Positions 3,872 to 49,400 of a DNA stretch of 64,000 nt are shown piece after piece (positions within the stretch are counted from its first letter, which is position 1; each line of letters opens with the position of its first letter). The stretch is from a bacterium. Its GTDB lineage: Bacteria > Hinthialibacterota > Hinthialibacteria > Hinthialibacterales > Hinthialibacteraceae. Both the position numbers and the translations under genes were made by a program. The notes beneath the pieces are model-generated. The model was not told where the DNA came from and did no database searches. It worked only from the letters and a program-made list of their open reading frames with translations. The stretch spans positions 6,351 through 70,350 of the forward strand of contig CAXXSM010000100.1 in assembly GCA_963663405.2 (NCBI GenBank), read 5' to 3'.

Positions 3872-3879
3872 GTGAGATT

Positions 3880-16601: not shown

Positions 16602-16674
16602 GAACCGTATAGCCTCGCATCGCGCACACAACCGCAATTCCGGTTAGTTTAGCAATTTGTAAAGGAATATAGCA

Positions 16675-17130
16675 ATGCCAAGACAACCAGTACCTACCAA
16701 CCTAAAGATCCTGCGCGGCAATCCAGGCAAGCGCGCAATCAACAAAAATGAACCGCAGCCGAGCGCGGACGGCGTCAAGTGTCCGTCCTGGTTATCACGC
16801 GACGCCAAGGCCGAGTGGCGGCGTGTGGCGCCGGAGTTAAAGCGGCTCGGCCTATTGACAGTCGTTGACGTGTCCGCGCTGGCAATGTATTGCGAGTCAT
16901 ATTCTCAATGGCGCGAGGCCGTCCGGATTATCGAGCGCGAGGGCCAAACGTATTCACATGACGGACTCATCCGCACTCATCCGGCGTGTCACGTGGCTAA
17001 CAATGCGGCGCGGACGGCTAACCTATTCGCCGGGCAGTTCGGAATGACGCCATCGGCGCGAACGAAATTATCTATCGAGCCGCCACAGCAACCGAGTTTG
17101 GTTGACAAATTTTTGAACCGGAGTGGGTGA
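16675..17130 (+). CDS. Phage terminase small subunit, P27 family
   Basis: ..LKILRGNPGKR.. at the N-terminus and ..FGMTPSARTKL.. at the C-terminus are characteristic of P27-family TerS. Confidence 0.8.
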   Translation: MPRQPVPTNLKILRGNPGKRAINKNEPQPSADGVKCPSWLSRDAKAEWRRVAPELKRLGLLTVVDVSALAMYCESYSQWREAVRIIEREGQTYSHDGLIRTHPACHVANNAARTANLFAGQFGMTPSARTKLSIEPPQQPSLVDKFLNRSG

Positions 17131-17398
17131 TATGGACGGCCTAATTTCACAGAGCCAAGTCGAGGACCAACTCGGTATTAATAAGCTCGCGCTGGACACG
17201 CTCCGGAACTTAGGCGTCCTCATTCCGGTTGACACCGGCGACGGTGAGCCGATGTACAGGCAAAGTGACGTCAGTCCATTTCTATTTTATCGATGCGTGT
17301 ACGTTGACGTAACGCTTGAGCGGGTCCGCGCAATTACAGCGGCGCAAACCGAGACGCCGGAAACTTACAATCCAATGCGGGGTGTAAATAATGGGTAG
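17123..17398 (+). CDS. Small HTH (excisionase/MerR-like) protein
   Basis: ..SQVEDQLGINKLALDTLRNLGVLIPV.. HTH_17-like pattern. Confidence 0.4.
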   Translation: MGDMDGLISQSQVEDQLGINKLALDTLRNLGVLIPVDTGDGEPMYRQSDVSPFLFYRCVYVDVTLERVRAITAAQTETPETYNPMRGVNNG

Positions 17399-19076
17399 AC
17401 AGACTATCGGCCAATTGGTTATTGACTTACAGGCGCAGACGTCCAAATTTCATAGCGATATGAATAAGACGTCACGTATGTGGAATAACAAATTGGATTC
17501 CATGCAGCGGACAGCCAAAAATTTTGGCACTGCCATCAAGGCGTATTTCTCATTTCAGGCGCTAAAAGGTCTATCCAATTTTGTGCAGGATAACATCGCC
17601 TGGGCGTCCTCCATGGCCAAGGTAGCCGATACCGTTGGTCTCTCGCTGGATAAATTCCAAGGCCTCTCGATGATCGTAAAGGAGCTATCCATCGAGCAAA
17701 GCACCTTCGAGCGCGCCATACAGCGAATGACGCGCCGGATCGGCGAAGCAGCCGAGGGAACCGGGACGGCAAAAGACGCATACTCCAAGTTAGGCATCCA
17801 GATTACAGATAGCGCGGGCAAGGTCCGGGATACGTTTTCCATTTTTCTCGACGTGGCGCGCCATTACAAAAAATTAAAAACAGAGGCGGATGAACTAAAC
17901 GTATCCAATCAACTATTTGGCCGTGGGTTTGAGGAGATAAATCTGCTGCTCAGGCAGGGCGCGCCTGCCATCGAAACGCAGATCAAAAAATTCGCGCGCA
18001 TGGGATTGATAATCAAAGATCCGCTCATACGCCAAGCGGAATTAGCGGACGATTCGCTCACAGAAATGAAAGACAGTGTTAGCGCGCTCGGCAAAGAATT
18101 CTCGCTTGTATTGGCTCCGGCGATTAAGACAGCGGCGGACGCCATGAGAACCAATGTAGGCGCAATGCGGCTGCTGTTCTCAAAGGCAACCTGGAATGAC
18201 TGGCTCACGGGCAATCCGCTAAAAACGGCGATCATGTACAACGTTATGTCACCGGCTGAAATGTGGGAAAAATATTACTATGGCGGCAAAGGGAAAAAAC
18301 TACTCGCCTACTCCGGGCTTCGGCTCGTCTAAAGGCGATGACGATTACATGGACGTATTTCCACCGGCGCAGGTAACGAAAACACGCGCCGATTGGATGA
18401 ATGACACTGTTCGCCGGATGAAAGACAATATGGAGTCTCTCACCAATGAAATGCAAATGCAGGTTGACGTCATTCGGGATGAGATGCGCTCGGAGCGGGA
18501 CATATACAATCAGCGATTAGAATTACTCAATCAGGCGCGCTCTATTAACATACTCAACGCCGATGAATTTAATACTATGTCCGAGCATGTAAATAACGTA
18601 TTCAACGGCATGGTAGAGGCCAGCCAGCGTTCTGCTAGATTAATAGAGAGCGGTATATCCGGCGCATTGGAATCAATTGCCAATAACGATCTTAATAATT
18701 TCGTAAATAGTTGGATACGCTCATTTGACAAAATCTTTTTTGATTTGGCCGGGCGGAATATTATCAATTTATTAGAACCAACTATGTTAGGCGCAGGGCG
18801 GGTTCCTAAACTTCGCATTCGGCGGCGTGAGAGCCGCAGGCGGGCCGGTTATGGGCGGCGCGTCCTATCTAGTCGGTGAGCGCGGGGCCGGAGTTGTTCA
18901 CACCGAATATCAGCGGACGGATAACACCGCATGAGCAGATAAAAGGCGCGGGCGATATCAACATTGACACCGGCGGCGCTCCACTATTCACCGTTACAAG
19001 CGGCCATGTAGGGCCACAGAGCGCGGCGCAGTTTAGGACAGGACTTCCTCGAATTCATCGAAGACGCGAGGCGTAA
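17391..19076 (+). pseudogene. Phage tail tape-measure-like protein, split over several frames
   Basis: TP901-type core (..KLGIQITDSAGKVRD..LFGRGFEE..). The C-terminal signature GGPVMGGASYLVGERG / PELFTPNISGRITP can be read only by switching frames around 18800-18890. Covers ORFs 17391..18332, 18280..18879 and 18876..19076. Confidence 0.7.
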
Positions 19077-19080
19077 ACGC

Positions 19081-20309
19081 ATGACTATTATACAACGCAT
19101 AAGACAATACATATGGCCGGAGCGGCGCAGCGAATATGAGAGCGCATGGTACAGCGGCGATCCATTGCCGGAGCGGTTCGGCGCGGCTGGAATTCGTGTC
19201 AACGCTGACAACGCCGTCCAACTAACGGCGGTTTTTCGCGTGTGTGAAAAATATTGAGTGAGACGGTCGCGTCACTTGCCATTGATCCTATACAAGCGCC
19301 TACCGGACGGCGGCAAAGCGCGCGCGGTGGAACATCCGCTATACAAACACGCTCCATGATAGTCCAAATCGTTGGCAGGACGTCGTTAGAATTCCGCAAG
19401 TTACTGCAGAGTCACTTATGTTTGCGCGGGAATGGCTACGCCGAGAAAATACGGCCAGGCGGACGGCTGGAATTGATACCGATCCATCCGGATACCTGCA
19501 CTCCTAAAATGAGTGACAGCGGCGTCATAACGTATGAGGTACAGACGCAGGAACAGCGGCGGACGTTACCGCAGAATAAAATACTGCACTTGCGCGGCAT
19601 TGGCAGTAACGGCCTTGTAGGTTTATCACCAATCGAGATATGCAGGGACGCAATCGGCGCTGGTATGGCAGTACAGCAGTATGGCAGCCGGTTTTTCATG
19701 AACAACGCTAGGCCATCGGGAATTATCGAGTATCCGGGCGTCATGCAGGATAAAGAGGAAATTGCAGCGTTTAAAAAGTCGTGGCAAGAGGCGCAGACGG
19801 GCGCGAATCAACATAAGACGGCCGTCCTTGAGCGCGGCATGACTTACAAGCCGATAGGTATATCCAATGAGGATAGCCAATTCCTTGAGACGCGGAAATT
19901 CAGCGTTGAGGAGATAGCGCGGATATACCGCATACCAATGCATCTTTTACAGTCATTGGACAAGTCGAGTTTTAATAATATCAGTCATCAGTCGATGGAA
20001 TTTCTAACATATACAATGATTCCTTGGTTCCGGCGGTGGGAATCAGTGTTAGCGCGCGATTTACTAACAGCCGAGGAGCGCACAGAGTATTTTTTTGAAT
20101 TCCTTGTCGATGGTTTCCTGCGCGGGGATATCCAGACACGCTATAACGCATACACCAAGGGCCGTCAATGGGGCTGGCTCTCACCTAACGACGTTCGCCG
20201 AATGGAAAACATGAATCCGATCGACGGCGGTGACGAGTATCTTACACCGCTCAATATGCAGGCAATAGGACAGCAAGATAACGGCGCTGACAATGCCGAT
20301 AAAAACTAA
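19081..20309 (+). pseudogene. HK97-family phage portal protein, N-terminal region frameshifted
   Basis: ORF 19254..20309 has portal motifs (..LRGNGYAEKI.., ..FMNNARPSGII.., ..EEIARIYRIP..). The N-terminus (MTIIQRIRQY..AVFRVCEKY) and ..LILYKRLPDGGKARAVEHPLYK.. are in other frames. Confidence 0.8.
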
Positions 20310-20331
20310 CATTTTACCGAGGTAAAAAAAA

Positions 20332-21667
20332 ATGAATGAATTACAGAAATTGCAAGCAAGACAGCGTGAAATTGCGCAGCGTATCATTGACATTAATGAG
20401 GCGGCTGTTTTGGAATCACGGGATTTATCCGAGGATGAAAAAAAGGAATGGCGGGATCTCCGGGCCGAGGAAAAAAAAGAACGCTGAGCGTATCAAGAAA
20501 CTCGAAACCGAGCAGCCAGCCGATGAGCGCAGCGTAGGTATCGAGGCGCTGAGCGCGCAGACGAATGGTGAGAGCCGCCAACGGGCGGCTAACCTGGATC
20601 GCCGGAGTTATCGCGGGATGTTTTGCCGAAATGGTGAACAACTCTCCAACGATGGCTTTTCCTCATTCGAAGAATGGATGGCATGTGTCCACAGTGGCCG
20701 TCCAGACGAGCGTCTGCAGTATCGATCGATGGGCAGCGATATTCCATCTGCAGGCGGTTTTCTCGTACCGGATCAATTCGTAGCCGAAATGTTGGATACC
20801 GGCATTGAGAATGAAATTGTCCGTCCTCGCTGCACTATCTGGCCGATGGTAAGTGACACCGCGCGCGCGCCGGGCTGGGATGGCGCGGATCACTCCAGTT
20901 CGTTATATGGCGGGTTTGCCGGGACGTGGCTCGGCGAGGGCGAGACGGCCACCGAGGTTGACGCGCAGTTTCGTTCCATTGCGCTTACGGCGCACAAATT
21001 GGCAGTCTTTACATCCGCGTCAAGCGAGTTGGTACAAGACAGTTTTCTCTCGTTTGATAGCATCATGAATGACGGTCTGCGCAATGCGCTGTCATGGTTC
21101 CTCGATTATGCGGCCATCAATGGGACCGGCGCGGGCCAGCCGCTCGGATTGGTCAATAACAATTCTGTTGTGTCAGTGGCCAAAGAGTCAGGACAGGCCG
21201 CGTCAACTATCGTGTGGAACAACATCTGCAAGATGTATGCGCGTATGTGGCCAAGTGGCCATCAAAATGCCATCTGGATTGCCAACAATACTATCATTCC
21301 ACAATTGTTGGCGCTTACCATTCCGGTTGGTACCGGCGGAAGTGCAGTCGGTCCTAACATCGGCCATCCAGTAATGAAAGAGGATAGTGGTAGTTTTTCA
21401 CTACTCGGCAAGCCGATTTATTTCACAGAAAAAGCTCAATCTCTGGGCACAGCGGGCGATATTATGTATGTCGATCTCTCACAATACGTCATGGGATTGC
21501 GAAAAGAGATCATTATCGAAAAGTCCAACGCCGTCCATTGGACAAGTGACAAGCAAGCCTACCGCGCCATCATGAGGGCCGATGGTATGGGCAAGTGGAA
21601 TAGCGCCATCACACCGAAAAACGGCGATACGCTTAGTTGGTGCGTAACGCTGGCGGCAAGGTCGTAA
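20332..21667 (+). pseudogene. HK97-family major capsid protein, frameshift in an A8 run
   Basis: The ATG at 20332 gives a coiled-coil delta-domain start (MNELQKLQARQREIAQRIIDINE..RAEEKKER*). The A8 run at 20471-20478 separates it from the frame of ORF 20336..21667 (..AGGFLVPDQF.., ..SELVQDS..). Confidence 0.85.
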
Positions 21668-21673
21668 GCTAAC

Positions 21674-22317: not shown

Positions 22318-23490
22318 CTAGCCGTTTTCCGCTTTCGCCTGTACGTCCGCAAACGATATGATTTTCGATCCATGTTTCCCCAACGCCTCACGCAGCGGGT
22401 CCTGTGCTAGATGCGCGTAGACTTCGGTTGTGCTGAGCGTGGATTGATTCAACGCCTTGCCAACGAGTATCAGCGACTCCCCGGAGGACGCCAGCCAGGA
22501 GCCTACCGTCCTGCGCAGATCATGGATTCGCAGCGTTGGCATTCCGGCGCGGTTGCGGATGCGATGCCATTGGCGCTTTGGAAATATCGCCCAGTGTTTC
22601 GATGGATCGGGGCCGGGGAATATCCATTTACAATTATCGATTCGGGGAATCATTTCGAACATGCCGAGAGCGGCAGTGCTGAGCGGCAAATAAAACGGGC
22701 GGCCTGCCTTTGTATCGTCCAACTTGAGAATCCTTTGCTCACGATCTAAGTCTTTCCATTCTCGCCGCATTAATTCACGATTCCGTAGGCCGGTTAAGAG
22801 GTACAGCCACAGTCCGGCGCGTACGACGGGATTCCACTCCTCATTAATCGCGGCGGCCAATTTAGGTAATTCGTCCGGCGTTACCCACACGTCCCGTTTT
22901 TCCTCTCGATTTTTCTTTATCCGTCTCGCCGGGCTGACGTTATCCTCTTTCAGGAAACCTTCGTTGATTGCGTATGAGTGTATGCGCGAGACGAGAGAGA
23001 CAATTCTATTGGCTTCGATGGGCGCGGTTTTCGATATACGATCATGTATTTTTTCTGATATCCGGGCGGGTGATCGAATCGGCTTTTTTCTTTCCAAGTT
23101 CGGGGCGCAGGTGTTTTTTCAATCCGGCGGCGGTCCTGAACGCCGGTTTTCAATTTCGATGCGTGGCGGGTTAAATAATCGTCAAGAATATCATTGAATG
23201 TTACCGATGGCTTGCCGCGCTTATCTGGATTGTTTACCGGCGGCAATGGTGAGATTCTTTATTCCAGCAATCTGACGCGCCTTCTCCGGCGTGATATTCG
23301 GATATTTTGCGATTGTGATCCATTTCAATTTTCCTTCCCACCGATAGCAGTAGACGAAAGACTTTTGACCGGATTTAAAAAACACGCAGACCGAAATGTG
23401 CGGTTTTCCGTATCCCAGATTATGCCAGGTGTTTTTACTGACTCGCAGAGGTGAGTTGTTATTTTTTTTTTCATAACAGTGGGCCTCCAA
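22318..23490 (-). pseudogene. P4-type tyrosine integrase (DUF4102-like N-terminus), three or more frameshifts at A runs
   Basis: N-terminus ..SFVYCYRWEGKLKWITIAKYPNITPEKARQ.. (23221..23490). Middle ..NPDKRGKPSVTFNDILDDYL.. (frame of 22950..23246). Catalytic part ..LRNRELMRREWKDLD.., ..RIHDLRRTVGSWL.., ..LSTTEVYAHL (22318..23097). Confidence 0.85.
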
Positions 23491-23640
23491 AAAAATAACA
23501 GTGGTTCTAACAGTGGGCCGTTTGAGCTAACACCAAGCTAACACATATGTCTATTTCTGTCCATATCGGAAAATGTAAAAGTAAAAATTTCCTAGGAAAA
23601 ACGGGGATTTGTATATGTCTGTCCATGTAGGGGCGATTGC

Positions 23641-23706
23641 CTTCTAAGCAGTGGGCCGCAGGTTCGAGTCCTGCCGGGCGTATACTGAAAATTCTAGACT
23701 TACGAA
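23641..23706 (+). repeat. tRNA-Arg(UCU) 3' fragment = att core, right copy
   Basis: 48 nt identical to 8755-8802. The 5 nt upstream (ATTGC) would complete the anticodon stem with GCAGT, but no acceptor 5' strand (ACGCCCG) or canonical D-arm is present. Confidence 0.85.
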
Positions 23707-23792: not shown

Positions 23793-23970
23793 ACTCTTAG
23801 ATCTTTTCCCAGTTTGAATATAATAAATCAATTCATCTCGGCAGGATCAGAAATTACCATTCAAACAAAATTCAAAAATCCCCGCCAGCTGCGCTAGCGC
23901 AGCAAAAAGACAAAAGCAAAGAGTATAAAGTGTCAAAGTGCAAAGGGTAAAAGCGATACAGCAAAAAGCG

Positions 23971-24791
23971 CTAATAAGTCCGGGAATACACAACTCGCAA
24001 ACCTATGACGTCGTCCCTGAGATCTGGGGCCCTGTCGAACCGGTACGCCGATCGGCAGTTCTCTGGATTGTAGAACCAGGAACCGCCCCGAAACACACGA
24101 GCTGCCCCACGGGGTGAATCAATCCAAGCGGAACCATCTTGAGGCGCCTCTTTGTAATTCTCATGCCAATCATCTTCACACCATTCCCGCACATTTCCGC
24201 TCATATCACAAAGCCCCCATAGATTTGGGGATTTTTCTACCTACTTGCTTCGTTTCCTCTTATCACATTATTGTCCGGATACCACGCATAATTCCATATT
24301 TCTCGATAATCATCATCCTCTCCCCAATAAAAGCGTGTCTTCGTTCCCGCCCGGCATGCGTATTCCCATTCCGCTTCGCTTGGAAGGCGAAATGTTCCTT
24401 GACCGAGTTGATTCAATTCAGTAATGAATCTTTGACAATCATCCCAGGAGACAGATTCAACTGGATGATCGGGTTTCCCTTTAAATTCAGAAGGATTCTC
24501 ACCCATCACAGCTTTCCATTGCGCCTGGGTGACGGGATATTTACCAAGATAACAATCATAATCTATTTTGACTATATGCTGTGGACTTTCATCATCATAT
24601 CGACCTTTCTCATTCTTTGGACTTCCCATCTTGAATCTACCCTTGGGTATATGAACAAATTCGATAGGAATCGATTCATTTGGCAAATTCGGTAATTGAA
24701 TGATGATGGTGTCCACGTTCATGTATTTCGAATGCGTCTCGTTTCTTAATTTGGATTTGAGGAACTTTCGTTTGCTCATTCCACGGTTCAA
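23971..24791 (-). CDS. FGE-sulfatase (SUMF1-like) domain portion of target 1 (two fragments), carries VR1
   Basis: ..FVHIPKGRFKMGSP..ESPQH..VTQAQW..VSWDDCQRF..FRLPSEAEWEYACRAG.. and ..MSGNVREWCEDDW..RGGSW..CRSA..R. Confidence 0.85.
23981..24110 (-). repeat. DGR variable repeat VR1
   Basis: Gap-free 130-nt match to the TR. All 20 mismatches (hand count) are at TR adenines (plus-strand T). Confidence 0.9.
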
Positions 24792-25489
24792 TCAAGAGTG
24801 TTTCTTCCAGCCATCTTCGTTTCTCATCTGCAACTGAACATTCCGTAAGCAGACAATCCATTAACAATTCCGATGATTGCATGTATTGGATAATATTCGA
24901 CAAATCTTCTGGAACTTGCAATGGATTCGAGAAATCAATATCAACGTGTGGATCAAACGATCGTTTTTCATTTTTTCTAAATAGGCTCTGGACAAATTCA
25001 CGTATTTCATCACTTCCCGAAGTTGCGAATAAAGCAAGCATTTTATTGACGGAATGAGGATTTGAATTGCTGGAACAAATACAACCTTCAAGATTCTGAA
25101 GAAGCCCAATCACTTCATCATTGGCAAGTTTTGAAATTCCCCGGCGCATAGAAATCAAAAATGAGTATGGATCGCTTAGTTTCTTCCGTTATCAATAAAA
25201 AAAACTTCACGCCATCGCTGTTCCCGCATATGCCGTTCAATAATGGAATCAAGATTCTGGGGATGTTCAACAATCCACAACGCGGTTAAATACTCATGGA
25301 AAGTGAGATGAGAGAAGGAATAGATATGCCTAGCGCGTTCAACCAACAAACCATGATGGCTTTCAATGGAACAAAGCAAAGTTCGACTATCAGTCAGTGC
25401 AATTCCTTTTTCAAATTGAAAAGTTTGTTGAAGGTAATGGGAAATATTATTTTCCAGAGATCTCCGTTTCATAAAAATAGTGTTCTTCA

Positions 25490-27049
25490 TTAAAAACTTT
25501 GATACGCCAATTCTGTCAATAATGAAATTTTAATCTCTTCTGTGAACGACTCTACAACATCAGGCCGTACGATCCCTCTTGTTAAATCCCATTCACGTAT
25601 TAACAAATCGAATGTTTCTCGATATAAATCAGCGCGGCTGGATGGAAACCGTTCTTTTTCAGAATTAGAAAAGACCCAACATAATAATGTTAGAAGCAAT
25701 GGATTTGTAGCTAACTCTAGAAGAGATCGATTCCTATTAATTTCATCATAACACTTTTGTGCTTTTTGGGGATTCTTTTTAAACCAGTTTTGTATAAATG
25801 TTCTGATCTGATCTTCATTAAAGTCCGCCACTTCAACTAAAGTAAATTTTTCAAAGGTTCTGTTATAAGCGGCAAGACGACAGCTAATGATAAAACGGTT
25901 TTTGTTATATCGTTTTGTAAACAAACGAATGGTCTGCACGGCTTCAGCTATTGTACTAAATGAAACCTCATCCAAACCATCCATAATAACTACACAATTC
26001 CCTTTTCTTAGATGCTGGCTGGTAAACTGCATTGCATCTTTAACATCTGCATCTTCAAATTGTTTGGAAATAAATTCAAGTATTGTGTTTTTGCTATCAG
26101 ACCATTCTTTTAAACTTATGAATATGGGTATCTTTTGTTTGTGAAGTTTTCCTTTAAGTATCTCAATGGTTATATATTTAAAAAAAGTAGTTTTCCCCGC
26201 TCCCGGTTTTCCTAATACCATCAAATGGTCATCGTTATCTTTTAATATTTCTATCCCTTCTACGGATTTATTTGAAGACGGATATTGACGCTGCTCGTTT
26301 GATCGAAACTGTTTCTCTAGTTCACTTAACTCAACGGATTGCTCTTTTGTGATCTTCTCAAGAATATGAACTTTAACATATATCGAATCCAAGGATATAT
26401 CTTTATCCATTCCTAAAATCTGAATCGAACTATTGTTCTCATAAATCTTATTTTTATAGGTTTTTAAGTCATGCTCAAAAACTTGCGTTTCTAAAACTGG
26501 TTCGTGAGTAAAAAAAATCTTTGAATCGATATTCGATGTATATAGTTTTATCTCTCCAAGAGGTGGTATTTCTATTTGATGAGTCATAAAACGATATAAA
26601 GTAATGTACTCTCTTTGAATAGATACATTAAAATATCCATAAATCTGCATGAATTCTGGAATATATAAATCCCATTCCGCATGAAAGACAATCGGAATGT
26701 ATTTTTCATTTAATGATTTCTGTTTATATAATTTATAATTAATATTTTGTAATTCTCTAAAACTTCCACGTTTATCAGATTTAGAATATTGTTCTGAACA
26801 TACTATTAATACAAAATCCGCTTTTTCGATTTGTTCAGACATCCAATCGAGCCATCCTTTAGGTGGGAACGGCTCATATTGGTCTATCCAACAATCTAAA
26901 CCATCATATCGAAGTTGATTCGCAAATGACAAAACAAGTTCACTATGCTCATTTGTTTCATGGCAATAGCTGATAAATACTCTTATTTTTTTGGGATAAT
27001 TTTCCATTTTTTTGTTCCAAGACATTTTCCTAGAAATTCTCTTATTCAA
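25490..27049 (-). CDS. TIR-superfamily (SEFIR-like) + NACHT P-loop NTPase fragment of target 1
   Basis: The N-terminus IRVFISYCHETNEHSELVLSFANQLRYDGLDCWIDQ..ADFVLIVCSEQY is TIR/SEFIR-like. Walker A is VLGKPGAGKTTF; Walker B is VVIMDGLDEV. Confidence 0.85.
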   Translation of the reverse strand: MNKRISRKMSWNKKMENYPKKIRVFISYCHETNEHSELVLSFANQLRYDGLDCWIDQYEPFPPKGWLDWMSEQIEKADFVLIVCSEQYSKSDKRGSFRELQNINYKLYKQKSLNEKYIPIVFHAEWDLYIPEFMQIYGYFNVSIQREYITLYRFMTHQIEIPPLGEIKLYTSNIDSKIFFTHEPVLETQVFEHDLKTYKNKIYENNSSIQILGMDKDISLDSIYVKVHILEKITKEQSVELSELEKQFRSNEQRQYPSSNKSVEGIEILKDNDDHLMVLGKPGAGKTTFFKYITIEILKGKLHKQKIPIFISLKEWSDSKNTILEFISKQFEDADVKDAMQFTSQHLRKGNCVVIMDGLDEVSFSTIAEAVQTIRLFTKRYNKNRFIISCRLAAYNRTFEKFTLVEVADFNEDQIRTFIQNWFKKNPQKAQKCYDEINRNRSLLELATNPLLLTLLCWVFSNSEKERFPSSRADLYRETFDLLIREWDLTRGIVRPDVVESFTEEIKISLLTELAYQSF

Positions 27050-27268: not shown

Positions 27269-27398
27269 CGGGAATACACAACTCGCAAACCTATGTTGTT
27301 GTTCCTGTTATCTGGGGTCCTGTTGTTCCGGTTCGCCGATCGGCAGTTTTCTGGATTGTTGTTCCAGGAACCGCCCCGAATCACACGAGCTGCTCTTT
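27269..27398 (-). repeat. DGR template repeat (TR)
   Basis: Translates (non-functionally) to [40 protein letters not shown], with about ten AAC codons. It overlaps the 3' end of the RT ORF. ORF 27121..27384 in the track is this repeat, not a gene. Confidence 0.9.
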
Positions 27399-28463
27399 CC
27401 TGATATATCCCCTTTCTTTACAATTTTTGCGTTTTCGAATAAAGACGTACGTAATCCCCATGAATCGGCATGTGAGACATGACCGATCCAACTGACAACC
27501 GATTGCGTCACATCAAACAATGCGATTTGCTTCTCACGATATTGAACGCGCAATTTCTTGAATCTTTTCAAAAACCGGTGGCCATTGCCATTCCGCACTA
27601 ATACATGACTGGGAAAAACACGATAACCCAGAAAATCAATCCCATCTCTAACCGGAACAACATGCGCGCAGTTTTCATGAATGGATAAATGGTTCTGATT
27701 CAACAAATAGTCAGAGATTTCGTTTTTGATTTCATACAATCGTTGTTTTGAATGATGCAGGACAAGCATATCATCCACATAGCGCAGGTAGGCTTTCACT
27801 CCCAAGGTCTCTTTCACAAAATGATCGAATGGATTCAGATAGACGTTAGCAAAAAATTGGCTGGTTAAATTACCGATTGGAATCCCCAAAGGCCCGTCAA
27901 AATTCAATAGATAATTCCCACGATCGTCAATCGGGTGAGGCTCACGGTAGCTGCGCAGTATATGACGTATTAACCATAAGATGGATTGATCGCCGATTTT
28001 CCGGGAGAGAATTGAGAATAATAAATCCTGTCGAATACTCTGGAAATACTTTCGTATATCTATTTTGATGGAGTACGGATAGTGTTGGATCAACGTTTTC
28101 AATCGATTCACCGCCGCATGAGTCCCTTTACCTTTACGGCATGCGTAGGAATCAGAGATAAACGATCGCTCGAAAATCGGTTCGATGATATTGCAAAAGG
28201 GCATGATGAACGATACGATCACGATAGGGAGCGGCGCTGATGGTTCTTTTCTTCCCTTCATTAATGACAAATTCCCGATACCCTCCATGTTGATACGTCT
28301 TTGTCTCTAATTCACGCTGTAACCGTAAGATCTCTCGCTCAAAATTGAGGTTAAATAGACTCACTTCAAAGCGGAATCGCTTCCCCTTTTGCGCTTTTTT
28401 GGACGCCAGCAATAAATTTTGAAAATCCCTTAGTTGGGGATAAAGGTTTTTATAACGTTTCAT
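27308..28463 (-). pseudogene. DGR-type reverse transcriptase, one frameshift near 28190-28200
   Basis: N-terminal ORF 28152..28463 (..[17 protein letters not shown]). It continues in ORF 27308..28288 ([26 protein letters not shown].., IGNLTSQFFANVYL, YLRYVDDMLVL). The junction lies at GCCCTTTTGC. Confidence 0.85.
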
Positions 28464-28804
28464 GCTTTCGCCTGCTGCTTGATCCAGCCTCCCAACATAG
28501 ATCCCACTTCATCTAAAATTTCAGAGATATACTTGTATCGGCGGAGATCAACAAATTTAAGATCTTTAGCCAATCTCGCCAAGAAACGGAATTTCTCCAA
28601 ATCTAAATTCGCGCGTTTCAGTAGAGCAATTTTCGAGCGTGAATACGAAGCTTCCACCAAAAGATCCAAGATCTCCAACAATACATTTTCCATACGGGAG
28701 CCAATCGTATATCGCTTATTTTTGGGGAATTTTTCAATCAAAGGCATCATCCAAAGAATGATGTCATACATTTTCTGCACGATAGCGGGGTGATTGCTTT
28801 TCAC
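28460..28804 (-). CDS. avd: Avd (accessory variability determinant), four-helix-bundle protein
   Basis: ..[33 protein letters not shown].. is typical of the four-helix-bundle (Avd / 23S-IVS protein) family. GGAGGA lies 5 nt upstream of the GTG at 28804. The 3' end overlaps the RT start. Confidence 0.8.
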
Positions 28805-28920
28805 GTGAATCCTCCAATTTAAAAAATATTCGCGAGCTGCGCTAACGCGCAGCAAAAAGACAAAAGCAAAAAGTATAAAGAGTCAAAGTGCAAAGGGTAA
28901 AAGCGATACAGCAAAAAGCG

Positions 28921-30157
28921 CTAATAAGTCCGGGAATACACAACTCGCAAACCTAAGTAGTTGACCCAGCTAACTGGGGACCTGAAGAACCGGAACGCCG
29001 ATCGGCAGCAGTCTGGATTGTAGTACCAGGAACCGCCCCGAATCACACGAGCGCCTCTACGGGGTGAATCAATCCAAGCGGAACCATCTTGAGGCGCCCC
29101 TTCAAAATTCTCATGCCAATCATCCTCACACCATTCCAGCACATTCCCGCTCATATCATAAAGCCCCCATGAATTCGGTTTCTTTTTCCCCACAGGATGT
29201 GTTTTTTGAGAAGAATTTCCAGTAAACCATGCAAACTGATTTATTTCTTTGATACTCAGGATCATCTCCCCAATAGAACCGCGTGCTTGTACCTGCCCGG
29301 CAAGCGTATTCCCATTCCGCTTCGCTTGGAAGACGGAACGTTCCTTGACCGAGATCATTCAATTTTTTGATGAAATTTTGACAGTCATCCCATGATACGC
29401 ATTCGACTGGGCGATTTGTGTTTCCCTTAAAATTAGCAGGATTCTTACCTAAAACCGCTCTCCATTGTTTTTGAGTTATTGGATATTTCCCTAAATAGAT
29501 ATCATGAGGAATAGTCACTTGATGCTGCGGACTTTCATATTCAGATCTATCTTTTTCTTTTTCCGGACTTCCCATCATGAAGGAACCTGCAGGAATTTTG
29601 CACAATAATAGAGGAACAGATTTACCTGTTGAACTGGGGATTTTAAATTCGATCTCGGAAGATTCATCTATAACTGGTTCGATTGATTTTAAAGGCGGTT
29701 CTACTATTGATGTAGTTGTATCCCTTTCAGGAGGTCCTTCTTCATCCGGCTTGTTTGGTTTGGAAGGTGTTCCGATTAATGATTGAATGGACTTGATAAG
29801 GTTATCAAAGTCTGTATTAGGTGTCCCCTTTTTCCAGCCGGTAAGATCAACCGTTTTAAGATCTCTGAATCCAAAAGGAGGACGTACTTTTTCAATGAAT
29901 ATTGGCCTTAAAATATTTTTATTTAGACCTTCTCTTGCCTCTTCTTTTACCCACTTGGATTTAATAGACGATTCTGACCAAAGCACGATAACACAATGGG
30001 TATTGTCAAGTTCAGCGTCGATAAAATCATAGATATTTTCTGCTATCGGGACTTCTCGATCCCAAAAAACAGACCACCCCCGCGATTGCAATTCTTCAGC
30101 GATAACCTTCGCAATTGCAATATCGTCACTTTTATAGCTAATAAAAATATCACTCAT
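28921..30157 (-). pseudogene. DGR target 2: TIR domain fused to FGE-sulfatase (C-type lectin fold) domain, one frameshift near 29260
   Basis: The N-terminus MSDIFISYKSDDIAIAKVIAEELQSRGWSVFWD..VIVLWSESSIKSKWVKEEA is a TIR. This is followed by a PSKPNKPDEEGPP linker, then ..CKIPAGSFMMGSP..ESPQH..RLPSEAEWEYACRAG.. . The C-terminal fragment ORF 28921..29358 carries VR2. Deleting one base in GAGTATCAAAGAA restores ..DDPEYKEINQFAWF. Confidence 0.85.
28931..29060 (-). repeat. DGR variable repeat VR2
   Basis: Gap-free 130-nt match to the TR. 22 of 23 mismatches (hand count) are at TR adenines. Confidence 0.9.
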
Positions 30158-30701: not shown

Positions 30702-33075
30702 ATGATCGTATCCAGGCGATATGCGCTTTGGGGCAATCTCTTTCGAATAACCTGTTGTCTTCTTGTCTGGTGTTCCAATGCTGTGGCTTTGTTTGAAACC
30801 GATATGCCGTATGCGGAGCGTGTAACGGATGGACGATTTCCGTTCGTAGGTACGTTTATGGTTTCCAAATGTCGCCAATCTTGGCACCGGCGTTGTAATC
30901 TCTCCCCGGCACATTTTGACATGCGCTCATCTGGCGCCATTCGACGAGGGAATCATTAAAGATTCCTTGTGGTATGAAGAACACGGGGGATCTGCCGACA
31001 ATGCGCGTGATGGGCGTATTAATTTCTATGGAACCGCTTCGACAGGAGACCATCCCAACTATACGACAACGCAGTTCTGGGTGCATCCGGATTACAATCC
31101 GGATTTAGGAAATTTGGCAGGATGGGATTTAATGATCATGGTGACAGCGGAACCGATCGACGATGTCGAGCCGGTTCCAATCATGCCGCGCTTAAACAGC
31201 GATCATTTACGCCGTGGATCGTGGGTTCGTCATGTTGGATTCGGTCCGACGGAAGGAGGCGCCGCGCATCAGTACAAAAGCACGTTACTCACACGCACAC
31301 TCAGCGTAGGTTTGAGTTCGCCGACTCTATATACATGGGGAGATGCGGGAGGCGGCGACTCAGGCAGCCCGGTTTTTCAACGCCGTATGGACGATCATGG
31401 ACAAATGAGAGAAGTATTAGTCGGTGTATTAACCAATGAGGGAATTCGTTCGATTTGGATCGATCCAAACGTATACAGTTGGATACGAAGTATTGTTGAT
31501 CGAATGGATCCAACGCTTCTGCCTGAGGATTACGACGGAGATGGAATTGAGAATATTTTTGATTCCTGTTTGTTGAAAGCGAGCAGCGAATCTGATTCCG
31601 ACAGGGATGAAGATGGGGTCGGCGCTTCGTGCGACACGTGCAGTGATTACAACGGTGGACAGTTCGACTCGGATGATGATGGAAGGGCAAATGGGTGCGA
31701 TCCTTGTCCGATTCCGAGTAGTTTCTTCCGGTTTGATCGATTGAATATTCCCAGTCTTCGCGGGTATTGGACGCAAAGTCCTTTCATGTTGGAATTTTTG
31801 GGTGTTGAAAGTGACGGACGCTGGTTGGATGAAGAATTTACTGTGGCTATCGATCCTGGAAGTGGTGGGGGATTTTATTCTGGACTCAGTCCTACTTTAA
31901 CGTTAGATGATGGCCGATACTCTCTTCGAGCGTCGGCTTTTGATGGATGCGGGAATCTAAGTGAGACACACACGATCGATTTCGGTGTGGATAGCGAACC
32001 TCCTACATTATCGTTTAATCATCCCGAAGAGGGCGCCATGATTCCTCGCGAATCAAATATGACTGTAGAGATCTTCGTTGGAGATATGAGCAGCGGTATC
32101 GGTTCCGTTGAATTATGGTTAGACGCGCCCGGAATGGGAGATGAGTTCAATCCAGGTATCAAGTTATGCGATTTTCCCGGCCCTTGGTTGATCGGATATG
32201 GGAATGTCGATCGTTGCACAGTAAATATGGATTTTCCCTTTGGGACGCATACTCTTTACGCGATCGCAAAAGATGTGGCTGGGAATGAGACGATCGCCCA
32301 AAGAGAAATAATGGTATGGTTATCACAACCGGGAGTTATACTTCCAACTCTTCCACCACTCAATACACCGGAACCGCTTGAATCAGAGCCGACGCCTACT
32401 CCGACCGCAACAAATACATCCATACCCAAAACAAATACTCCGGCGCCTGTGCAGAAAGCAACATTGACTCCAACACCCAAAATATCAGAAGAGTCGATCG
32501 TCTATTCGTTTGATCAAGCGACATTGGAGAAAAATGGCTGGAGTGAAATCCCCGGTGGCTTTATGAAATACGATTCCGGAGATGTGATTGTATCAAAATT
32601 ACCGGCGAATTCGATCCCTTCTTCCGAGGATAATTTGGGATTGGCGATGACTGTTATGGGGGATGAAGTTGCGCTTGTTTATTCAGTCAAGCCATTCGAT
32701 TCGGATGGAAAACCGGTTTTATTACGCTTAAGCGTGCGCGCGACCGGGCCTGACGCGACATTAACCTTGGCTTGTTTGAAAGGAGGAATTCAAACGCAAA
32801 CCGATGGATCGGTCGCCACTCATTCGCCTGCAACCGCGCAGAGTTTCGTTAAAAATGAACGTACGATCGTCCTCATTTATCAACCCGATGACGAGGAACC
32901 AATCAATCCCATAATTCAAGTGGCGGGAATCGGCGCTAAAACGAAAACAACAGTATATATTGATCGATTGGAAGCGTATGTCATTGAAAAAAGTGGTTCG
33001 TATTTGGGTGAATTATTCTATTCCGATCCATTATTCCACAAGCAAATCCCCGGAATTCCTAGCATCAGAGAATAA
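30702..33075 (+). pseudogene. Secreted trypsin-like (S1) serine protease with TSP3-like Ca-binding repeats and Pro/Thr linker; frameshift near 30865
   Basis: The signal-peptide ORF 30702..30959 reads on in the next frame as ..NVANLGTGVVISPRHILTCAHL.. (His), ..WDLMIMV.. (Asp), ..GDSGSPVF.. (Ser). DxDxDG repeats occur at DYDGDGIENIFDSC...DRDEDGVGASCDTC. The linker is EPTPTPTATNT. Confidence 0.75.
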
Positions 33076-33189
33076 TTTCTCAATCGTTACAGAGACAAAA
33101 ATCTATCGTAGCAGGAGACTTTGGCTGATCTGATGATGGTCATGCAAAATTATATACGAAATAGCGGGATCAAATTTTCTCCCATAATA

Positions 33190-34698
33190 CTAGGGCAACC
33201 GGTGGGAAATCTCTTTCATGCGTGGGTAGAGTTCTTTGTATAATTCAAAACGTTCGTTGTAGATGTTGTGATTCTCGTTGTTGGGTTCGTATGTTTTTTT
33301 GATCTTCGCCAGCTGCGAACCGGTTTCGCCAATAGAAGAATAGACACCTGTGGCCGCTCCCGCTAGAATGGCGCAACCCAGACACCCCGATTCCGATACG
33401 GCGGGCACGGCGATGGGAATTCCCATGATATCCGCTTTGATTTGCAGCCAGTATTCTGATTTTGCGCCGCCGCCTGTGGCGAGCAGCAAATGAATGGCCC
33501 CGCCCGCTTCCCGCAGCAGTTCGGCGCACATCCGCATCTCATAAGTCAATCCCTCCAACAGCGCCCGTGTGATTTCTCCCTTGGTTGTGCCCAGCCGCAG
33601 TCCGGCGATAACGCCTTTCGTCTGCGTGTCGAAATGAGGCACACCGGATGTGGTGAAGTGGGGGAGAACTAACAGATTTGTGGGATTGCTCGCTGCTTCT
33701 TCGGTGAGAATATCGTATACATCCCGGCCACTTTCTTCAGCCCGCCGTTGTTCGTCCTGTCCGAATGTATCCCGGTACCAACGAAATAAACTGCCGCCGG
33801 TGAAATTGTAAACCAGGGAGATGAATTGGTCTGGGCAGGTATGGTGGTAACAACAGATGTTGTTCGACAACATCTGATCGTTCAACAGCAATTCTGTGAA
33901 CACCGGCGCGATACATTCCACCGTGCCGATCCCATAAGCGGCCACATTCGGTTTTGTGGCGCCCGCGCCCAGTGTTTGACAGGGTTGATCGTGTCCGCCG
34001 GTAACAACTTTCACTCCTCGCGGGAGACCAATCTCATCCGCGATGGAATCAGGGACAACGCCGATTACGGTTCCGGATGGTTTTGGATCCGGCATCATTG
34101 AACGGTCAACGCCGGCGAATTCTAAAAACTCATCACACCAATCATTCTTTCGTACGTCGAAGAGCATCGTCCGGCCCGCGAGGCTGTAATCAGTTGTGGG
34201 CGCCATTCCTAGACGATAAAGGACCAGATCTTCAAAACAGAGAATTGACTTCGCTTTATGCAGAACCTCTGGTTCATGTTCTTTTAACCACTGCAGCTTC
34301 AGCGCAGTAAAACAAGCCGCCAAAGGCTGGCCTGTGGTTTGAAAGATCTTTTCCCGTCCATATTTTTCTTCCCATTGAGGAACATACGGTTCGGTGCGGG
34401 TATCGAAACTGACGATCGCGTTGTAAAGGATCGTTCCTTCCGCGTCCACGATCGATACCGCTTCTCCCTGACAGGAAGGGGCCATGGCTGTGATGGGATC
34501 ATTTTTCGTCTGACTCGCCACGAAACCAATGCAAGTCTTGATATCCTCCCAAACCCGGTTTCCATCCAATTCCGCCCAACCAGACTGGGGAGAATGCAGC
34601 GGATATTCCCGGTAGGCTGAGGTGAGAATCTTTCCCTCTTCATCAAAAGCGACGGCTTTACAACCAGTCGTGCCAACATCGACGCCTAATAAACTCAC
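33190..34698 (-). CDS. FGGY-family carbohydrate kinase (xylulokinase-like)
   Basis: LLGVDVGTTGCKAVAFDEEG.. N-terminal actin-fold motif and ..LLLATGGGAKS.. C-terminal motif. GTG start with a GGAGG RBS. Confidence 0.8.
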   Translation of the reverse strand: MSLLGVDVGTTGCKAVAFDEEGKILTSAYREYPLHSPQSGWAELDGNRVWEDIKTCIGFVASQTKNDPITAMAPSCQGEAVSIVDAEGTILYNAIVSFDTRTEPYVPQWEEKYGREKIFQTTGQPLAACFTALKLQWLKEHEPEVLHKAKSILCFEDLVLYRLGMAPTTDYSLAGRTMLFDVRKNDWCDEFLEFAGVDRSMMPDPKPSGTVIGVVPDSIADEIGLPRGVKVVTGGHDQPCQTLGAGATKPNVAAYGIGTVECIAPVFTELLLNDQMLSNNICCYHHTCPDQFISLVYNFTGGSLFRWYRDTFGQDEQRRAEESGRDVYDILTEEAASNPTNLLVLPHFTTSGVPHFDTQTKGVIAGLRLGTTKGEITRALLEGLTYEMRMCAELLREAGGAIHLLLATGGGAKSEYWLQIKADIMGIPIAVPAVSESGCLGCAILAGAATGVYSSIGETGSQLAKIKKTYEPNNENHNIYNERFELYKELYPRMKEISHRLP

Positions 34699-35346
34699 AG
34701 TTGATTTCCTCCCCCATATTTATATGGTTTTCGAGATGTATATAATTTTAAAGGCGATCTGGTAATCCAAGCAAGTCTTTCCAGTAGAATAAATTCATTA
34801 TATCGGATTAACAGTGTGTTTTTTTTCATTAAAGATGCGGCGGAAAAAAAGCCTTATAAGACGAAACGAACATAATACACTGCGTATGGCAAGCCTATCA
34901 ACGCTACGATAGATGAGTATCAATTTTATGGTTCATCCGGTAAGTGAGTGCGTAAAGTTAAAATAATTTCTTTCATGCTATACTCCTCTTACATTTGTGG
35001 CCTCTCACCACGACGGCCCTATAAGCAAAACTATCGAGTCAAGATTCCGATTAATGAGCGGCGGGAGGTTCATCCAGTGCGGGAAACGCTCCAGTCTGAG
35101 TTACGAAGACAGGCTAGTCTGGTTATCCCGAACTGGGAGTGAGATTCTATTTTTTTCCTGACTTATCCACAGGGATTCGCCGCGAAAAATGCGTTTTTTT
35201 CATTCTTTTTTTTTCATTTCTTTTTTTCTCTTTGGAATTATAGGACTATTGTTTATTGTCTCACGGGGACAAAAAGATACTACACAGCCTTTAAAAGCTG
35301 GGTATTTTCTGAATAATTCTGAATATATAAACAAACGGTTACTATT

Positions 35347-36248
35347 TCATTCCAATTCGATTGTATACGCGATCATCTGCTCGCCTTGATCCGGGGCTTT
35401 CACGGCCCAATTTCCATCGGGACGCAAGACACCGGTCGGCGCGGAGCAAGGTATATCCGTTGGATGGCAATTATCCGCAGTCACGATCCAGACGTTTCCC
35501 GCCTGGGCGCGGATACGCAGATTCGTTTCGTGGAACGGCCAAAAAACAGTCTTGGACCATTCTCCTCCATTCCGCCCTCCGTTGATCGCGTGAAAAATGA
35601 TCTTCGCGCCCATATCGGATAATTGCTGGCTGAGATGAGGATCAGGCATCGGTGTGCAACCGGGATTACCCCATAGGTCATTACAGATCAAACCACCAAT
35701 GGTAAGCCCATCAAGATTGAACACTCGCAAAGGCCGCGCCGCATAATGGTTAATTTCCCCGCGAGACGGTTCGGTCATTGAACCACAGCGGAGGATTTTA
35801 TTATGAAATCCAAGAAAATTCCCTTTGACCATCATAAAATCGAATCTGGTTGTAACAGCGTTGATCGTCCGGTTCCACGAAACACGTGCCCAGCGCCAAA
35901 GCCAATCCCGCTTTAGAAGAGCGTTTTAGAAGTTGCTTTAAACCTTCCTCAACTTGCGATTGATCAAATTCATGTGTATACCCGCTCAACGATCCTTCGG
36001 GTCGTCAACAGAATATCAGCGTTCTCAGCGATCGCCCAATCGATCGAGCGGGTGATGGTCTTCACATTTTCGGCGATATCCCGCGTAACGGGAATTTGCG
36101 CCGCCGCTACCCGGATTGTTTTTCCCGCGCTTTTCTCTTGTTCTTCCATCGTTTGTTTATTCAATTCTTCCTCTGCATGGATGATTGTACTTTGAAAAAA
36201 TACTATAACGGCTCCAATGATTATGATAGACAATGTATATTTCATCAT
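35347..36248 (-). pseudogene. Carbon-nitrogen hydrolase (nitrilase superfamily), two frameshifts
   Basis: Signal peptide plus ..IRVAAAQIPV.. (35970..36248), ..PEGSLSGYTHEF.. (frame of 35801..35989), ..LTIGGLICNDLW.. with the catalytic Cys (35347..35835). Confidence 0.7.
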
Positions 36249-36294
36249 TGTTTTTCTCCTAATAAATACCTAAATGCAGTTTGGAAAATACATT

Positions 36295-38193: not shown

Positions 38194-38356
38194 AATCAGA
38201 TCCTTCCTAATGGGGCATTCCATCTAAGAAATGCCATGTTTTTACTAACGTTCGATTGTGCGATCGCCGGATATCGAAAGGAGCGCTTTATACATCTGTT
38301 TTTCTTCCTATGAGAATGCAATCACTGGAATCCAATCCAGCCGCGTGGACTCTCGT

Positions 38357-39649
38357 TCAACGTTTTCGTACACGGGAAAGAATTTTTTCGTAGCGTTGAC
38401 GGTAGACAGGATTATTCGGATCAAGGTCAATGGCCTTGCGTATCGACCGCAGGCAGAGATCGGCGTCGCCATGGGAATAATAGGCCCAGCTCAAAATGTC
38501 GTACGCTTCCGCCGTAGGTTCGCTGCTCACTACGCTTTCGAGAAGTTCAATCGCTTTTTGGGGACCCTCTTTGCTACTGCTGTAGAGGAAGGTTTTCGCA
38601 AGTCCACGTTTGACCGCGTTGTCGTCTGGATTGAGTTCATGCGCTTTCGCGAGCGCCTGATGAGCGTTTTTCCAGTCTTTCTGCGATGCGAGAATGAGTC
38701 CCAGCCCCAAGTAGTAACGATGATCCTCTCCATTCATCGTCAGCAATTCCCGGAACAGGGTCTCGGCTTTCTTCGGTTGTTCCAGGTCTTGGTAGACCTG
38801 AGCCAACCTGAAACGGGCTTCTTCACTTTTTGGATCGAACGAGAGTGTTTTTAAAAAATGGAACCGGGATTCATTCAACCGGTTGCGCTGGTAATAGATC
38901 GAAGCCACATCAAAATGGACAGCGGCGGCGGAAGCGTTTGCGTTCTCTTGATCGGTCTTTTCGACCACCGTTTCGTCCATATATTTTTCTTCTTCTTTTT
39001 TCTTTTCGCGGAACGTCTCTAACATTTTTTTCGCCGCGTCTTGATCGCCTTGCTGCCGGTAAATCTTGGAGAGTAGATAGTACGGTTCGGGCAAGAGGGA
39101 ATTATACTTGCTCGCAGCTTCCGCTTCGCGCCGGGCTTCATCCAAACGGCCTTCGTCGAAATAACGCTGCCCCAAATAGAAATGACAAGACGCGTCAGTC
39201 GGATTGTATTTCAGTTCCGCTTCAAACGCGTCACGGGCTTCTTCCATACGATTCAACTTTTCGAGCGCCTGCCCGAGCCGCTTGTTCGCCTGCGGAGCGC
39301 CGGGATCGAGCCGCAGCGTTTTTTGATACCAGTCCACCGCGTTTTCATAATCTGGAAGACGGGCGTAGAGAAACGCGACCATCTGCACAATCGACGCTTT
39401 TCCCGGCTCATACTCCAATCCCTTTTTAAAAGCCTCAATCGCTTCCTCATATTTCCTCGCGCGGTAATACACATATCCCATTGCAAAATGACTCGGCGCG
39501 AACTCTGGAAACGCATTCTGAACCTGATCCGCGACACCAACAGTATATTCCAAAACCTTCTTTGGATTCATTTTCTCCGCGGCAAAGACTGAGCAACCGG
39601 CGTGAGAAACAACAGCGAAAAGAAAAAAAACAATGAGTAATCGTTTCAT
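38357..39649 (-). CDS. TPR-repeat protein with signal peptide
   Basis: Multiple A..Y..A......P....A...LG TPR units. Start MKRLLIVFFLFAVVSHA at 39649. Confidence 0.8.
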   Translation of the reverse strand: MKRLLIVFFLFAVVSHAGCSVFAAEKMNPKKVLEYTVGVADQVQNAFPEFAPSHFAMGYVYYRARKYEEAIEAFKKGLEYEPGKASIVQMVAFLYARLPDYENAVDWYQKTLRLDPGAPQANKRLGQALEKLNRMEEARDAFEAELKYNPTDASCHFYLGQRYFDEGRLDEARREAEAASKYNSLLPEPYYLLSKIYRQQGDQDAAKKMLETFREKKKEEEKYMDETVVEKTDQENANASAAAVHFDVASIYYQRNRLNESRFHFLKTLSFDPKSEEARFRLAQVYQDLEQPKKAETLFRELLTMNGEDHRYYLGLGLILASQKDWKNAHQALAKAHELNPDDNAVKRGLAKTFLYSSSKEGPQKAIELLESVVSSEPTAEAYDILSWAYYSHGDADLCLRSIRKAIDLDPNNPVYRQRYEKILSRVRKR

Positions 39650-39854
39650 GATAGTAATACCTCTGCGGAATAACGGCGAATTTCCTGTATTATAGTAAAT
39701 GAGCAATATCAAGCCGTCAATATATTCTAAAATTCGCTTGACAATCTGGATGAGGGAAGCATAATGCGAAGCTACATAGTAACCTGTTCCGATTGAATGA
39801 AGATTATGTGATGATAGGTTCATTAGACGAAAATGTCATAAAGGATAATGGCTG

Positions 39855-42781: not shown

Positions 42782-42791
42782 TCCCATACGG

Positions 42792-43796: not shown

Positions 43797-43808
43797 TCCA
43801 CGCTCCCC

Positions 43809-49392: not shown

Positions 49393-49400
49393 AACGTCTA

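Follow-up and report, generated by a model that had tools for sequence, protein, structure and literature searches.

Can a bacterial NLR-like protein carry a sensor tip that is rewritten by a retroelement, and does the locus described here encode such a receptor in a single chain? The question is raised by five open reading frame (ORF) pieces lying on the minus strand at 23971-27049 of a 64,000-nucleotide (nt) stretch of bacterial DNA (GenBank assembly GCA_963663405.2, contig CAXXSM010000100.1, positions 6,351 to 70,350; hereafter the window, in which all coordinates without another source are given). An initial annotation made from the sequence had read these pieces, across their frame breaks, as one protein of about 1,000 aa whose C-terminal lectin-fold domain is diversified by a diversity-generating retroelement (DGR). 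Our results showed that the locus is a complete chromosomal DGR with two target genes, T1 and T2. The five pieces are T1, a SEFIR-NACHT-helical-lectin protein, whose identity and architecture are almost certainly as described below. Along the minus strand, from 30157 to 23971, the cassette reads T2 (TIR-lectin), Avd, reverse transcriptase (RT), template repeat (TR) and T1, with two targets, Avd, RT and TR in 6.3 kb. Its features are as follows.

23971..27025, minus strand: T1 (target gene 1), SEFIR/TIR, NACHT, helical region and FGE-sulfatase domain with C-terminal variable repeat 1 (VR1); 1015 aa after 7 base removals
27269..27393, minus strand: TR, the template repeat, 125 nt
27400..28463, minus strand: RT, matching Pfam RVT_1, with YVDD and IGNLTSQ; split by an extra T
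28460..28855, minus strand: Avd, matching Pfam bAvd and NCBIfam DivGenRetAVD
28921..30157, minus strand: T2 (target gene 2), TIR_2 followed by FGE-sulfatase; 411 aa after one base removal
23981..24105, minus strand: VR1, variable repeat at the 3' end of T1
28931..29055, minus strand: VR2, variable repeat at the 3' end of T2
23866..23970, minus strand: 3' flank of VR1, ~105 nt, containing the GC hairpin CTGCGCTAGCGCAG and, after it, a T run; repeated behind VR2 at 28816-28920

The three repeats carry the signature of adenine-specific mutagenesis. Exactly one TR and two VRs are present in the window, and TR, VR1 and VR2 align without gaps. Within the 120-nt core, VR1 differs from TR at 16 positions and VR2 at 19, and all 35 mismatches fall at TR adenines; since adenines make up only 30% of the core (36 in number), the probability of this arising by chance is below 1e-17. 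The TR contains 11 AAC/AAT codons, and its 19 variable codons correspond to about 10^17.7 protein variants per target. VR1 and VR2 form the last ~42 codons of the two FGE-sulfatase domains, and the differences between them are likewise restricted to adenine sites, with no non-adenine decay in TR or in either VR. This pattern gives indirect support to ongoing mutagenic retrohoming. The protein components of the retroelement are also in place. The RT (Pfam RVT_1, 1.6e-14) has a repaired translation of 384 aa and is matched by PADLOC RT models as well, and its NCBIfam scores fall below the cut-offs of other RT families. Avd exceeds both the Pfam bAvd cut-off (77.4 bits versus 40) and that of the NCBIfam DivGenRetAVD equivalog (115.8 bits versus 80).

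As deposited, the first T1 piece (25490-27049) matches Pfam TIR_2 (9.5e-17), SEFIR (2.7e-13) and NACHT (3.3e-16). It is followed by a winged-helix piece, a helical piece (24676-25158) with a weak NCH2 match, and two FGE-sulfatase halves, an N-part (24237-24791, 1.5e-25) and a C-part (23971-24204, 8e-15). Removal of seven single bases joined all five into one ORF of 1015 aa with zero internal stops. In the repaired protein the FGE-sulfatase halves merge into a single uninterrupted match covering model positions 4-254 of 255, and TIR_2, SEFIR and NACHT each exceed the Pfam cut-off. The protein of about 1,000 aa that the initial annotation had assembled across the breaks was thus recovered, and so were the profile matches that it had expected from the frame-corrected sequence. 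Its start was placed differently: ATG at 27025 is the likely start, not TTG at 27049. The repaired T1 is divided as follows.

26630..26983, minus strand: SEFIR-type TIR-superfamily domain (residues 15-132; Pfam TIR_2 59.8 bits, SEFIR 49.9 bits)
25775..26224, minus strand: NACHT P-loop NTPase core (residues 268-417; Pfam 58-60 bits versus a cut-off of 26.7)
24715..25774, minus strand: winged-helix and helical region, then a spacer before the lectin domain (FSHLTFHEYLTA; weak NCH2)
23986..24667, minus strand: FGE-sulfatase / C-type-lectin-fold domain (residues 787-1010; Pfam 163.8 bits)

In Pfam, the N-terminal domain scores 49.9-50.9 bits with SEFIR (cut-off 23). Because TIR_2 slightly outscores SEFIR there, its assignment as SEFIR rests on two other comparisons. 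The best PDB matches of the T1 N-terminus are the Bacillus cereus SEFIR structure 5y8e (3.9e-10) and the Act1 SEFIR domain, and the PADLOC bSEFIR profile matches T1 residues 6-416 with 4.4e-33, a match that runs from the effector into the NTPase. The SEFIR-like TIR domain named in the initial annotation is therefore supported, as is its NACHT P-loop: GKPGAGKTT, DGLDEV and the winged-helix FSHLTFHEYLTA are all present, with Walker A (GKPGAGKT) at 26189-26212 and Walker B (DGLDE) at 25967-25981. The region that it called a linker of about 160 aa is not featureless but largely NACHT-associated and helical, with NCH2 scoring 22.9-24.8 bits, under the cut-off of 27. The closest PDB structure to the lectin domain is the DGR variable protein TvpA (2y3c, 1.3e-26), which, together with the adenine-specific TR/VR differences, agrees with the proposal that an FGE-sulfatase domain ending in VR1 is the DGR target. 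No signal peptide or membrane segment is apparent in the T1 sequence, and the sensor is therefore probably cytoplasmic.

The second target has a simpler build, with TIR_2 and FGE-sulfatase domains but no NTPase. Its TIR domain matches the PADLOC models of the defence proteins Thoeris ThsB and SAVED-TIR. T2 probably serves either as a second sensor/effector or as a partner to T1.

That T1 is one polypeptide is borne out by its relatives. In a homolog search of 5.8 billion proteins, the best relative was P0001, an intact 985-aa protein with TIR_2, NACHT, NCH2 and FGE-sulfatase in one chain, which is 57% identical to T1 over 99% of the query and co-linear with it through all seven junctions. The initial annotation had recommended a survey for intact orthologs, with separately encoded NACHT and FGE parts as the contrary outcome; in P0001 both parts belong to a single intact polypeptide. 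The next gene on the P0001 contig is a 410-aa TIR-FGE gene orthologous to T2, and gene 2 of locus L001 (ENA ERZ21862645 ctg12974l), likewise of 410 aa, shows about 80% similarity to T2. Other co-linear NACHT-FGE proteins were found (P0273, P0414, P0281 of locus L002, and P0394), and NACHT-FGE fusions occur elsewhere in Desulfobacterales (L003, L063), in a cyanobacterium (L052) and in other metagenome-assembled genomes (MAGs); in L003, two NACHT-FGE copies adjoin an RT. The idea that the fragments are unrelated neighbours, namely a SEFIR-NACHT gene with a distinct FGE-sulfatase DGR target behind it, is consistent with the five ORFs as deposited and with the lack of an FGE domain in most database NACHT relatives, but it is scarcely credible and is refuted because P0001 holds all parts in one protein co-linear at every junction and the nucleotide alignment with L001 requires only single-base gaps, leaving a repaired ORF without a stop, to which the co-linear NACHT-FGE proteins P0273, P0414 and P0281 add further weight.

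An AlphaFold2 model of P0001 was confident in its TIR and NACHT parts and helical to about residue 710. Searched against the PDB with Foldseek, this model had NLRC4, NLRP3 and NOD2 as top matches (~1e-12, over about 500-600 columns). Because its modelled lectin part was poor, the assignment of the C-type-lectin (CLec) domain rests on the Pfam and TvpA sequence matches.

T1 and P0001 grow more alike along the chain: the effectors share 20% identity, the stretches that follow 47%, 64% and 78%, and the lectin domains 83%, with the helical region at 24715..25774 accounting for the 64-78% range. The effector of P0001 (residues 1-190) is a canonical TIR domain matched by pAgo-TIR and SAVED-TIR models, whereas T1 residues 1-200 (~26426-27025) are bSEFIR-like. 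This gradient indicates effector exchange on a conserved sensor.

Downstream of the VRs, a conserved element is found. The 3' ends of VR and TR part company after GTGTATTCCCG, and a T-rich flank of ~105 nt, near-identical in all four cases, follows the VRs of the window (23866-23970 and 28816-28920, minus strand) and of L001 (3858-3960 and 5277-5380). This flank is better conserved than the coding regions upstream and ends with a 6-7-bp GC hairpin (CTGCGC..GCGCAG) followed by a T run, and its overall folding stability is no different from that of shuffled sequence. This element could be the hairpin by which the DGR recognizes its targets, a terminator, or both at once. As to L001 itself, positions 393-5276 hold orf157, a T1-like gene and a T2-like gene in that order, and the two targets are not separated by Avd, RT or TR. 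The contig stops 195 nt past the T2-like gene, so an RT may follow, and the 157-aa upstream ORF is unannotated.

Taken together with reported defence proteins, these features suggest a mechanism. The RT/Avd complex would reverse-transcribe the TR RNA, making errors specifically at adenines, and the resulting cDNA would replace VR1 and VR2, re-randomizing in each lectin domain 19 codons that belong to the ligand-binding face. As a tripartite STAND protein of the NLR-like kind, T1 would act in the cytoplasm. Its autoinhibition would be lifted once the lectin tip binds a cognate ligand, for which a phage protein is the most plausible choice, and the NACHT module would then oligomerize. The clustered N-terminal SEFIR domains would in turn break down NAD+, as the bSEFIR defence protein does, and infection would be aborted. 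The bSEFIR protein defends against phi29 and depletes NAD+ (10.1101/2022.05.11.491447; 10.1101/2024.02.11.579819), this Bacillus protein being the only one for which phage defence with NAD+ depletion is known. On balance, T1 is probably an active DGR-diversified NLR-like sensor in which ligand binding would lead to NACHT oligomerization and SEFIR-dependent NAD+ depletion; as for the narrower claim that the mechanism is immune and works by depleting NAD+, we see the chances as evenly balanced. The initial annotation had likewise suggested a programmable sensor coupled to a TIR effector, a proposal that our analysis also arrives at and that has already been published for the class (PMC10907252).

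Several observations weigh against an active sensor. The structural model is that of the homolog P0001 and not of T1, and its lectin part was built on an alignment without FGE homologs. The literature search returned no experimental test of any DGR-diversified STAND protein, and no ligand or action of such a protein has been demonstrated in the literature, in line with the initial annotation's remark that the function of the class was not shown. In the deposited sequence each of T1, RT and T2 is broken, and the system in that form is non-functional. The breaks are concentrated at ~16-30 kb, a low-GC mobile region, versus mostly intact genes at 33-64 kb, which would fit a decaying mobile island. 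Finally, no near-identical sister-strain copy of T1 was recovered by the homology search, the list of which was dominated by multi-FGE proteins.

The interruptions could be read as genuine decay: a dead DGR island with true frameshifts in T1, T2, RT, the neighbouring integrase and prophage genes, and with nothing functional left. About 12 breaks within roughly 16-30 kb, in low-GC DNA rich in mobile elements (a transposase, a degenerate prophage, an integrase), would fit such an island, as would the mostly intact core genes; moreover, a sister assembly, L080, ends at the island border at ~30.9 kb, so the island may be strain-variable and dispensable. The nature of the breaks, however, argues otherwise. 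By three-frame inspection, each T1 junction was bridged by a one-base shift, and all shifts ran in the same direction, at the following sites.

24232..25496, minus strand: seven inferred +1 sites in T1, namely T5 at 25492-25496, A3 at 25467-25469, T8 at 25197-25204, A3 at 25180-25182, GG at 24713-24714, A3 at 24253-24255 and A5 at 24232-24236

When the 3' half of T1 was aligned with its intact counterpart in L001 (82.5% nucleotide identity), every frame-disrupting difference proved to be an extra window base at a predicted site, the sole other indel being an in-frame 3-mer. The RT is broken by one extra T in a T4 run (28195-28198), T2 by one extra A in an A3 run (29248-29250), and the integrase by two +1 insertions in A6 runs (23114-23119 and 23049-23054). 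Among the breaks in T1, RT, T2 and the integrase there are zero frame-disrupting deletions. A decayed gene is also hard to reconcile with a repaired T1 lacking any nonsense codon in 1015 codons, or with TR and VRs lacking any non-adenine mismatch.

The same defect occurs outside the cassette. L080, which comes from the same kind of ENA project, is 97.3% identical to window 32318-49777. Over these 17 kb it carries, relative to the window, 46 single extra bases versus 11 missing ones, and its extra bases split an M14 peptidase gene and an FGGY kinase gene that are both intact in the window. A core gene for a secreted CN-hydrolase is broken in both assemblies, in the window (35347-36269, minus strand) by two private extra bases at ~36002 and ~35824, and in L080 (~17030-17960) by seven other private extra bases; deletion of the gap columns gave an ORF of 306 aa spanning the whole CN_hydrolase domain. 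Breaks that consist of insertions alone, and that arose independently at different places in two nearly identical assemblies, are the mark left by long-read consensus errors. These targeted comparisons were used in place of a window-wide scan of frame-shifted ORF junctions, which was too noisy for an estimate of error density. Thus, the breaks in T1, RT, T2 and the integrase are very probably consensus insertion errors, and the real T1 is probably intact; genuine decay of the cassette is decidedly improbable. The initial annotation had spoken of testing a repaired allele; the breaks look like assembly errors and not like those of a dead allele. Programmed frameshifting or a deliberately split NLR was rejected, given seven +1 events in one gene and the same defect in unrelated genes. 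In practical terms, apparent pseudogenization of this sort is best explained by insertion-type consensus errors and should not be taken for biology.

If the system is real and active, it might still not be antiviral. The lectin tips could tune a signalling, regulatory or kin/self-recognition pathway, in which the TIR/SEFIR domains would serve for signalling or assembly and not as a suicide NADase. Cyanobacterial DGR targets were first read as tuners of regulatory pathways (PMC7517822), and phage-sensing evidence is absent from the literature for every class member. The SEFIR domains of animals are adaptors and not enzymes, and early work on bacterial SEFIR proposed a generic protein-protein interaction; the effector and NTPase part of T1, however, matches the experimentally validated bSEFIR defence model with the E-value given above. 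T2 has no NTPase switch of its own, but its TIR domain resembles those of Thoeris ThsB and SAVED-TIR defence systems. In addition, the tripartite NLR logic is that of the bNACHT/Avs defence proteins (PMC10907252), and the locus adjoins mobile elements and a gene resembling the PADLOC candidate PDC-S28. We therefore regard a non-antiviral role as unlikely and prefer the immune sensor described above.

Compared with known systems, the locus is closest to the DGR STAND NTPase-CLec proteins (clade 5D) of Doré et al. (PNAS 2024, PMC10907252), which were proposed as antigen sensors, their function being proposed only. In both, the DGR has two targets, and every target bears its VR in the one CLec domain at its C-terminus; one target has a central NACHT/STAND NTPase, in some cases with an N-terminal TIR domain. 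The proteins are cytoplasmic in both (for T1, probably so), and the loci are chromosomal and not phage-borne. In contrast to that class, the effector of T1 is SEFIR-type (bSEFIR-like) and not canonical TIR, T2 is a short TIR-CLec protein without an NTPase, and the host appears to be Hinthialibacterota-like and not a known multicellular bacterium. The likeness to clade 5D lies in the organization of the locus, with two CLec targets of which one combines an N-terminal TIR-family domain with a central NACHT.

Three other groups share parts of the T1 architecture. The single-gene bSEFIR system (Millman et al. 2022; Bacillus sp. NIO-1130) has the same N-terminal SEFIR domain followed by an NTPase region, and NAD+ depletion is the output expected of both; unlike T1, it has neither an FGE/CLec domain nor a DGR, and its sensor is not hypervariable. 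The order of effector, STAND NTPase switch and C-terminal sensor is found in bNACHT, Avs/AVAST and the NLRs of animals and plants (NLRC4, NLRP3, plant TIR-NLRs), and the P0001 model superposes on the NACHT modules of NLRC4, NLRP3 and NOD2. The sensors of these proteins are germline-fixed repeats (TPR, LRR, WD40), whereas that of T1 would be a lectin fold rewritten somatically by a retroelement. TvpA of Treponema denticola and Mtd of Bordetella phage BPP-1, the classical variable proteins of DGRs, share with the present targets the FGE-type C-type-lectin fold, a VR at the C-terminal ligand-binding face, AAC-rich TR codons and the presence of Avd and RT. In contrast, neither has an NTPase or a TIR effector, and their role is binding, at the surface or on the tail fibre.

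DGR-diversified FGE-sulfatase (FGS) domains have also been tied to NTP-dependent conflict systems (Kaur, Burroughs, Iyer and Aravind, eLife 2020, PMC7159879). In the VMAP/iSTAND ternary systems described there, as in T1, FGS is always C-terminal in multidomain conflict proteins, and TIR and NACHT are among the fused modules. Unlike those systems, the cassette has no MoxR ATPase, vWA or VMAP seen beside it and is a stand-alone STAND-type system; a MoxR-vWA ternary system was rejected, no such genes occurring among the scanned flanking ORFs.

The class having already been published (Doré 2024, Kaur 2020), the T1 locus is a further member of it. Modestly new are the bSEFIR-like effector, the effector swap relative to the closest ortholog and the Hinthialibacterota-like host, by which the class would be extended to a SEFIR effector and to an uncultured lineage of this kind, with effectors swapped on a conserved sensor. 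The host assignment follows from ProS, for which no database protein exceeds 73% identity; the nearest named relatives are Ca. Hinthialibacter antarcticus (68%) and MAGs labelled Omnitrophota (about 70%). The host thus seems to be an uncultured bacterium akin to the Hinthialibacterota, from a lineage without known multicellularity. A broader picture is conceivable, if rather doubtful: an active, somatically hypermutating immune module with two receptors in a lineage not known to be multicellular, in which one TR would re-randomize both T1 and T2, the two cooperating as sensor plus helper or decoy, and in which the effector would be exchangeable on a shared DGR-sensor backbone. If this were true, DGR-programmable NLRs would not be tied to multicellularity and would be modular, adaptive-like receptors. 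DGR-diversified STAND/NLR-like proteins are the nearest bacterial counterpart known to a somatically diversified immune receptor. The locus is compact, its effector is of an assayable type (bSEFIR NAD+ depletion) and an intact ortholog is available to guide its repair, which makes it a sensible choice for synthesis and testing; it could serve as a test case once its sequence is verified.

As for the surroundings, the GC content of the cassette is 38-42%, versus 46-52% in the core genes on one side. At the opposite border lie a tRNA-like sequence (23615-23682, plus strand) and then the frameshifted tyrosine integrase gene (22318-23246, minus strand), and the cassette starts just past this site. 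The tRNA-like sequence has a borderline Rfam score (31.3 bits versus 29), and ARAGORN found no tRNA at the integrase boundary. The two elements are probably the attachment end of a degenerate prophage to the left. A prophage remnant at ~16660-21670 (plus strand, 50-52% GC) includes a small terminase, tape-measure-like pieces in three frames, a portal and a capsid, with no large terminase recognised in it. The N-terminal coiled coil of the capsid lies in another frame (20332 versus 20336), and several prophage junctions resemble +1 insertions. The idea that the DGR is part of this prophage was rejected, the cassette being located on the far side of the integrase and the tRNA-like site and differing in GC content (38-42% versus 50-52%). 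The sister contig L080 (28,721 bp) stops near window ~30.9 kb, where the DGR island starts, which points to an island that varies between strains or is difficult to assemble; L080 also diverges past window 49.8 kb, where it carries transposases.

Further to the left lie low-GC accessory genes, including those for a DDE transposase, a Sel1 protein, a PDC-S28-like ORF and a DUF3800 protein. The ORF at 2253-3200 (minus strand, 315 aa) has no Pfam match and resembles the C-terminal part of PDC-S28 (2.9e-10); it is surrounded by DNA of 35-37% GC together with the DDE transposase (71-934) and the Sel1-repeat protein (1429-2157). At 3218-5166 (plus strand), five overlapping ORFs with zero Pfam matches, each one frame off its predecessor, may be one larger indel-broken gene or a run of small genes. 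Directly downstream of the DUF3800 gene (9285-9992, plus strand), a DUF3800-VII RNA motif (Rfam RF02967, 82 bits) was found at 9995-10082 on the minus strand.

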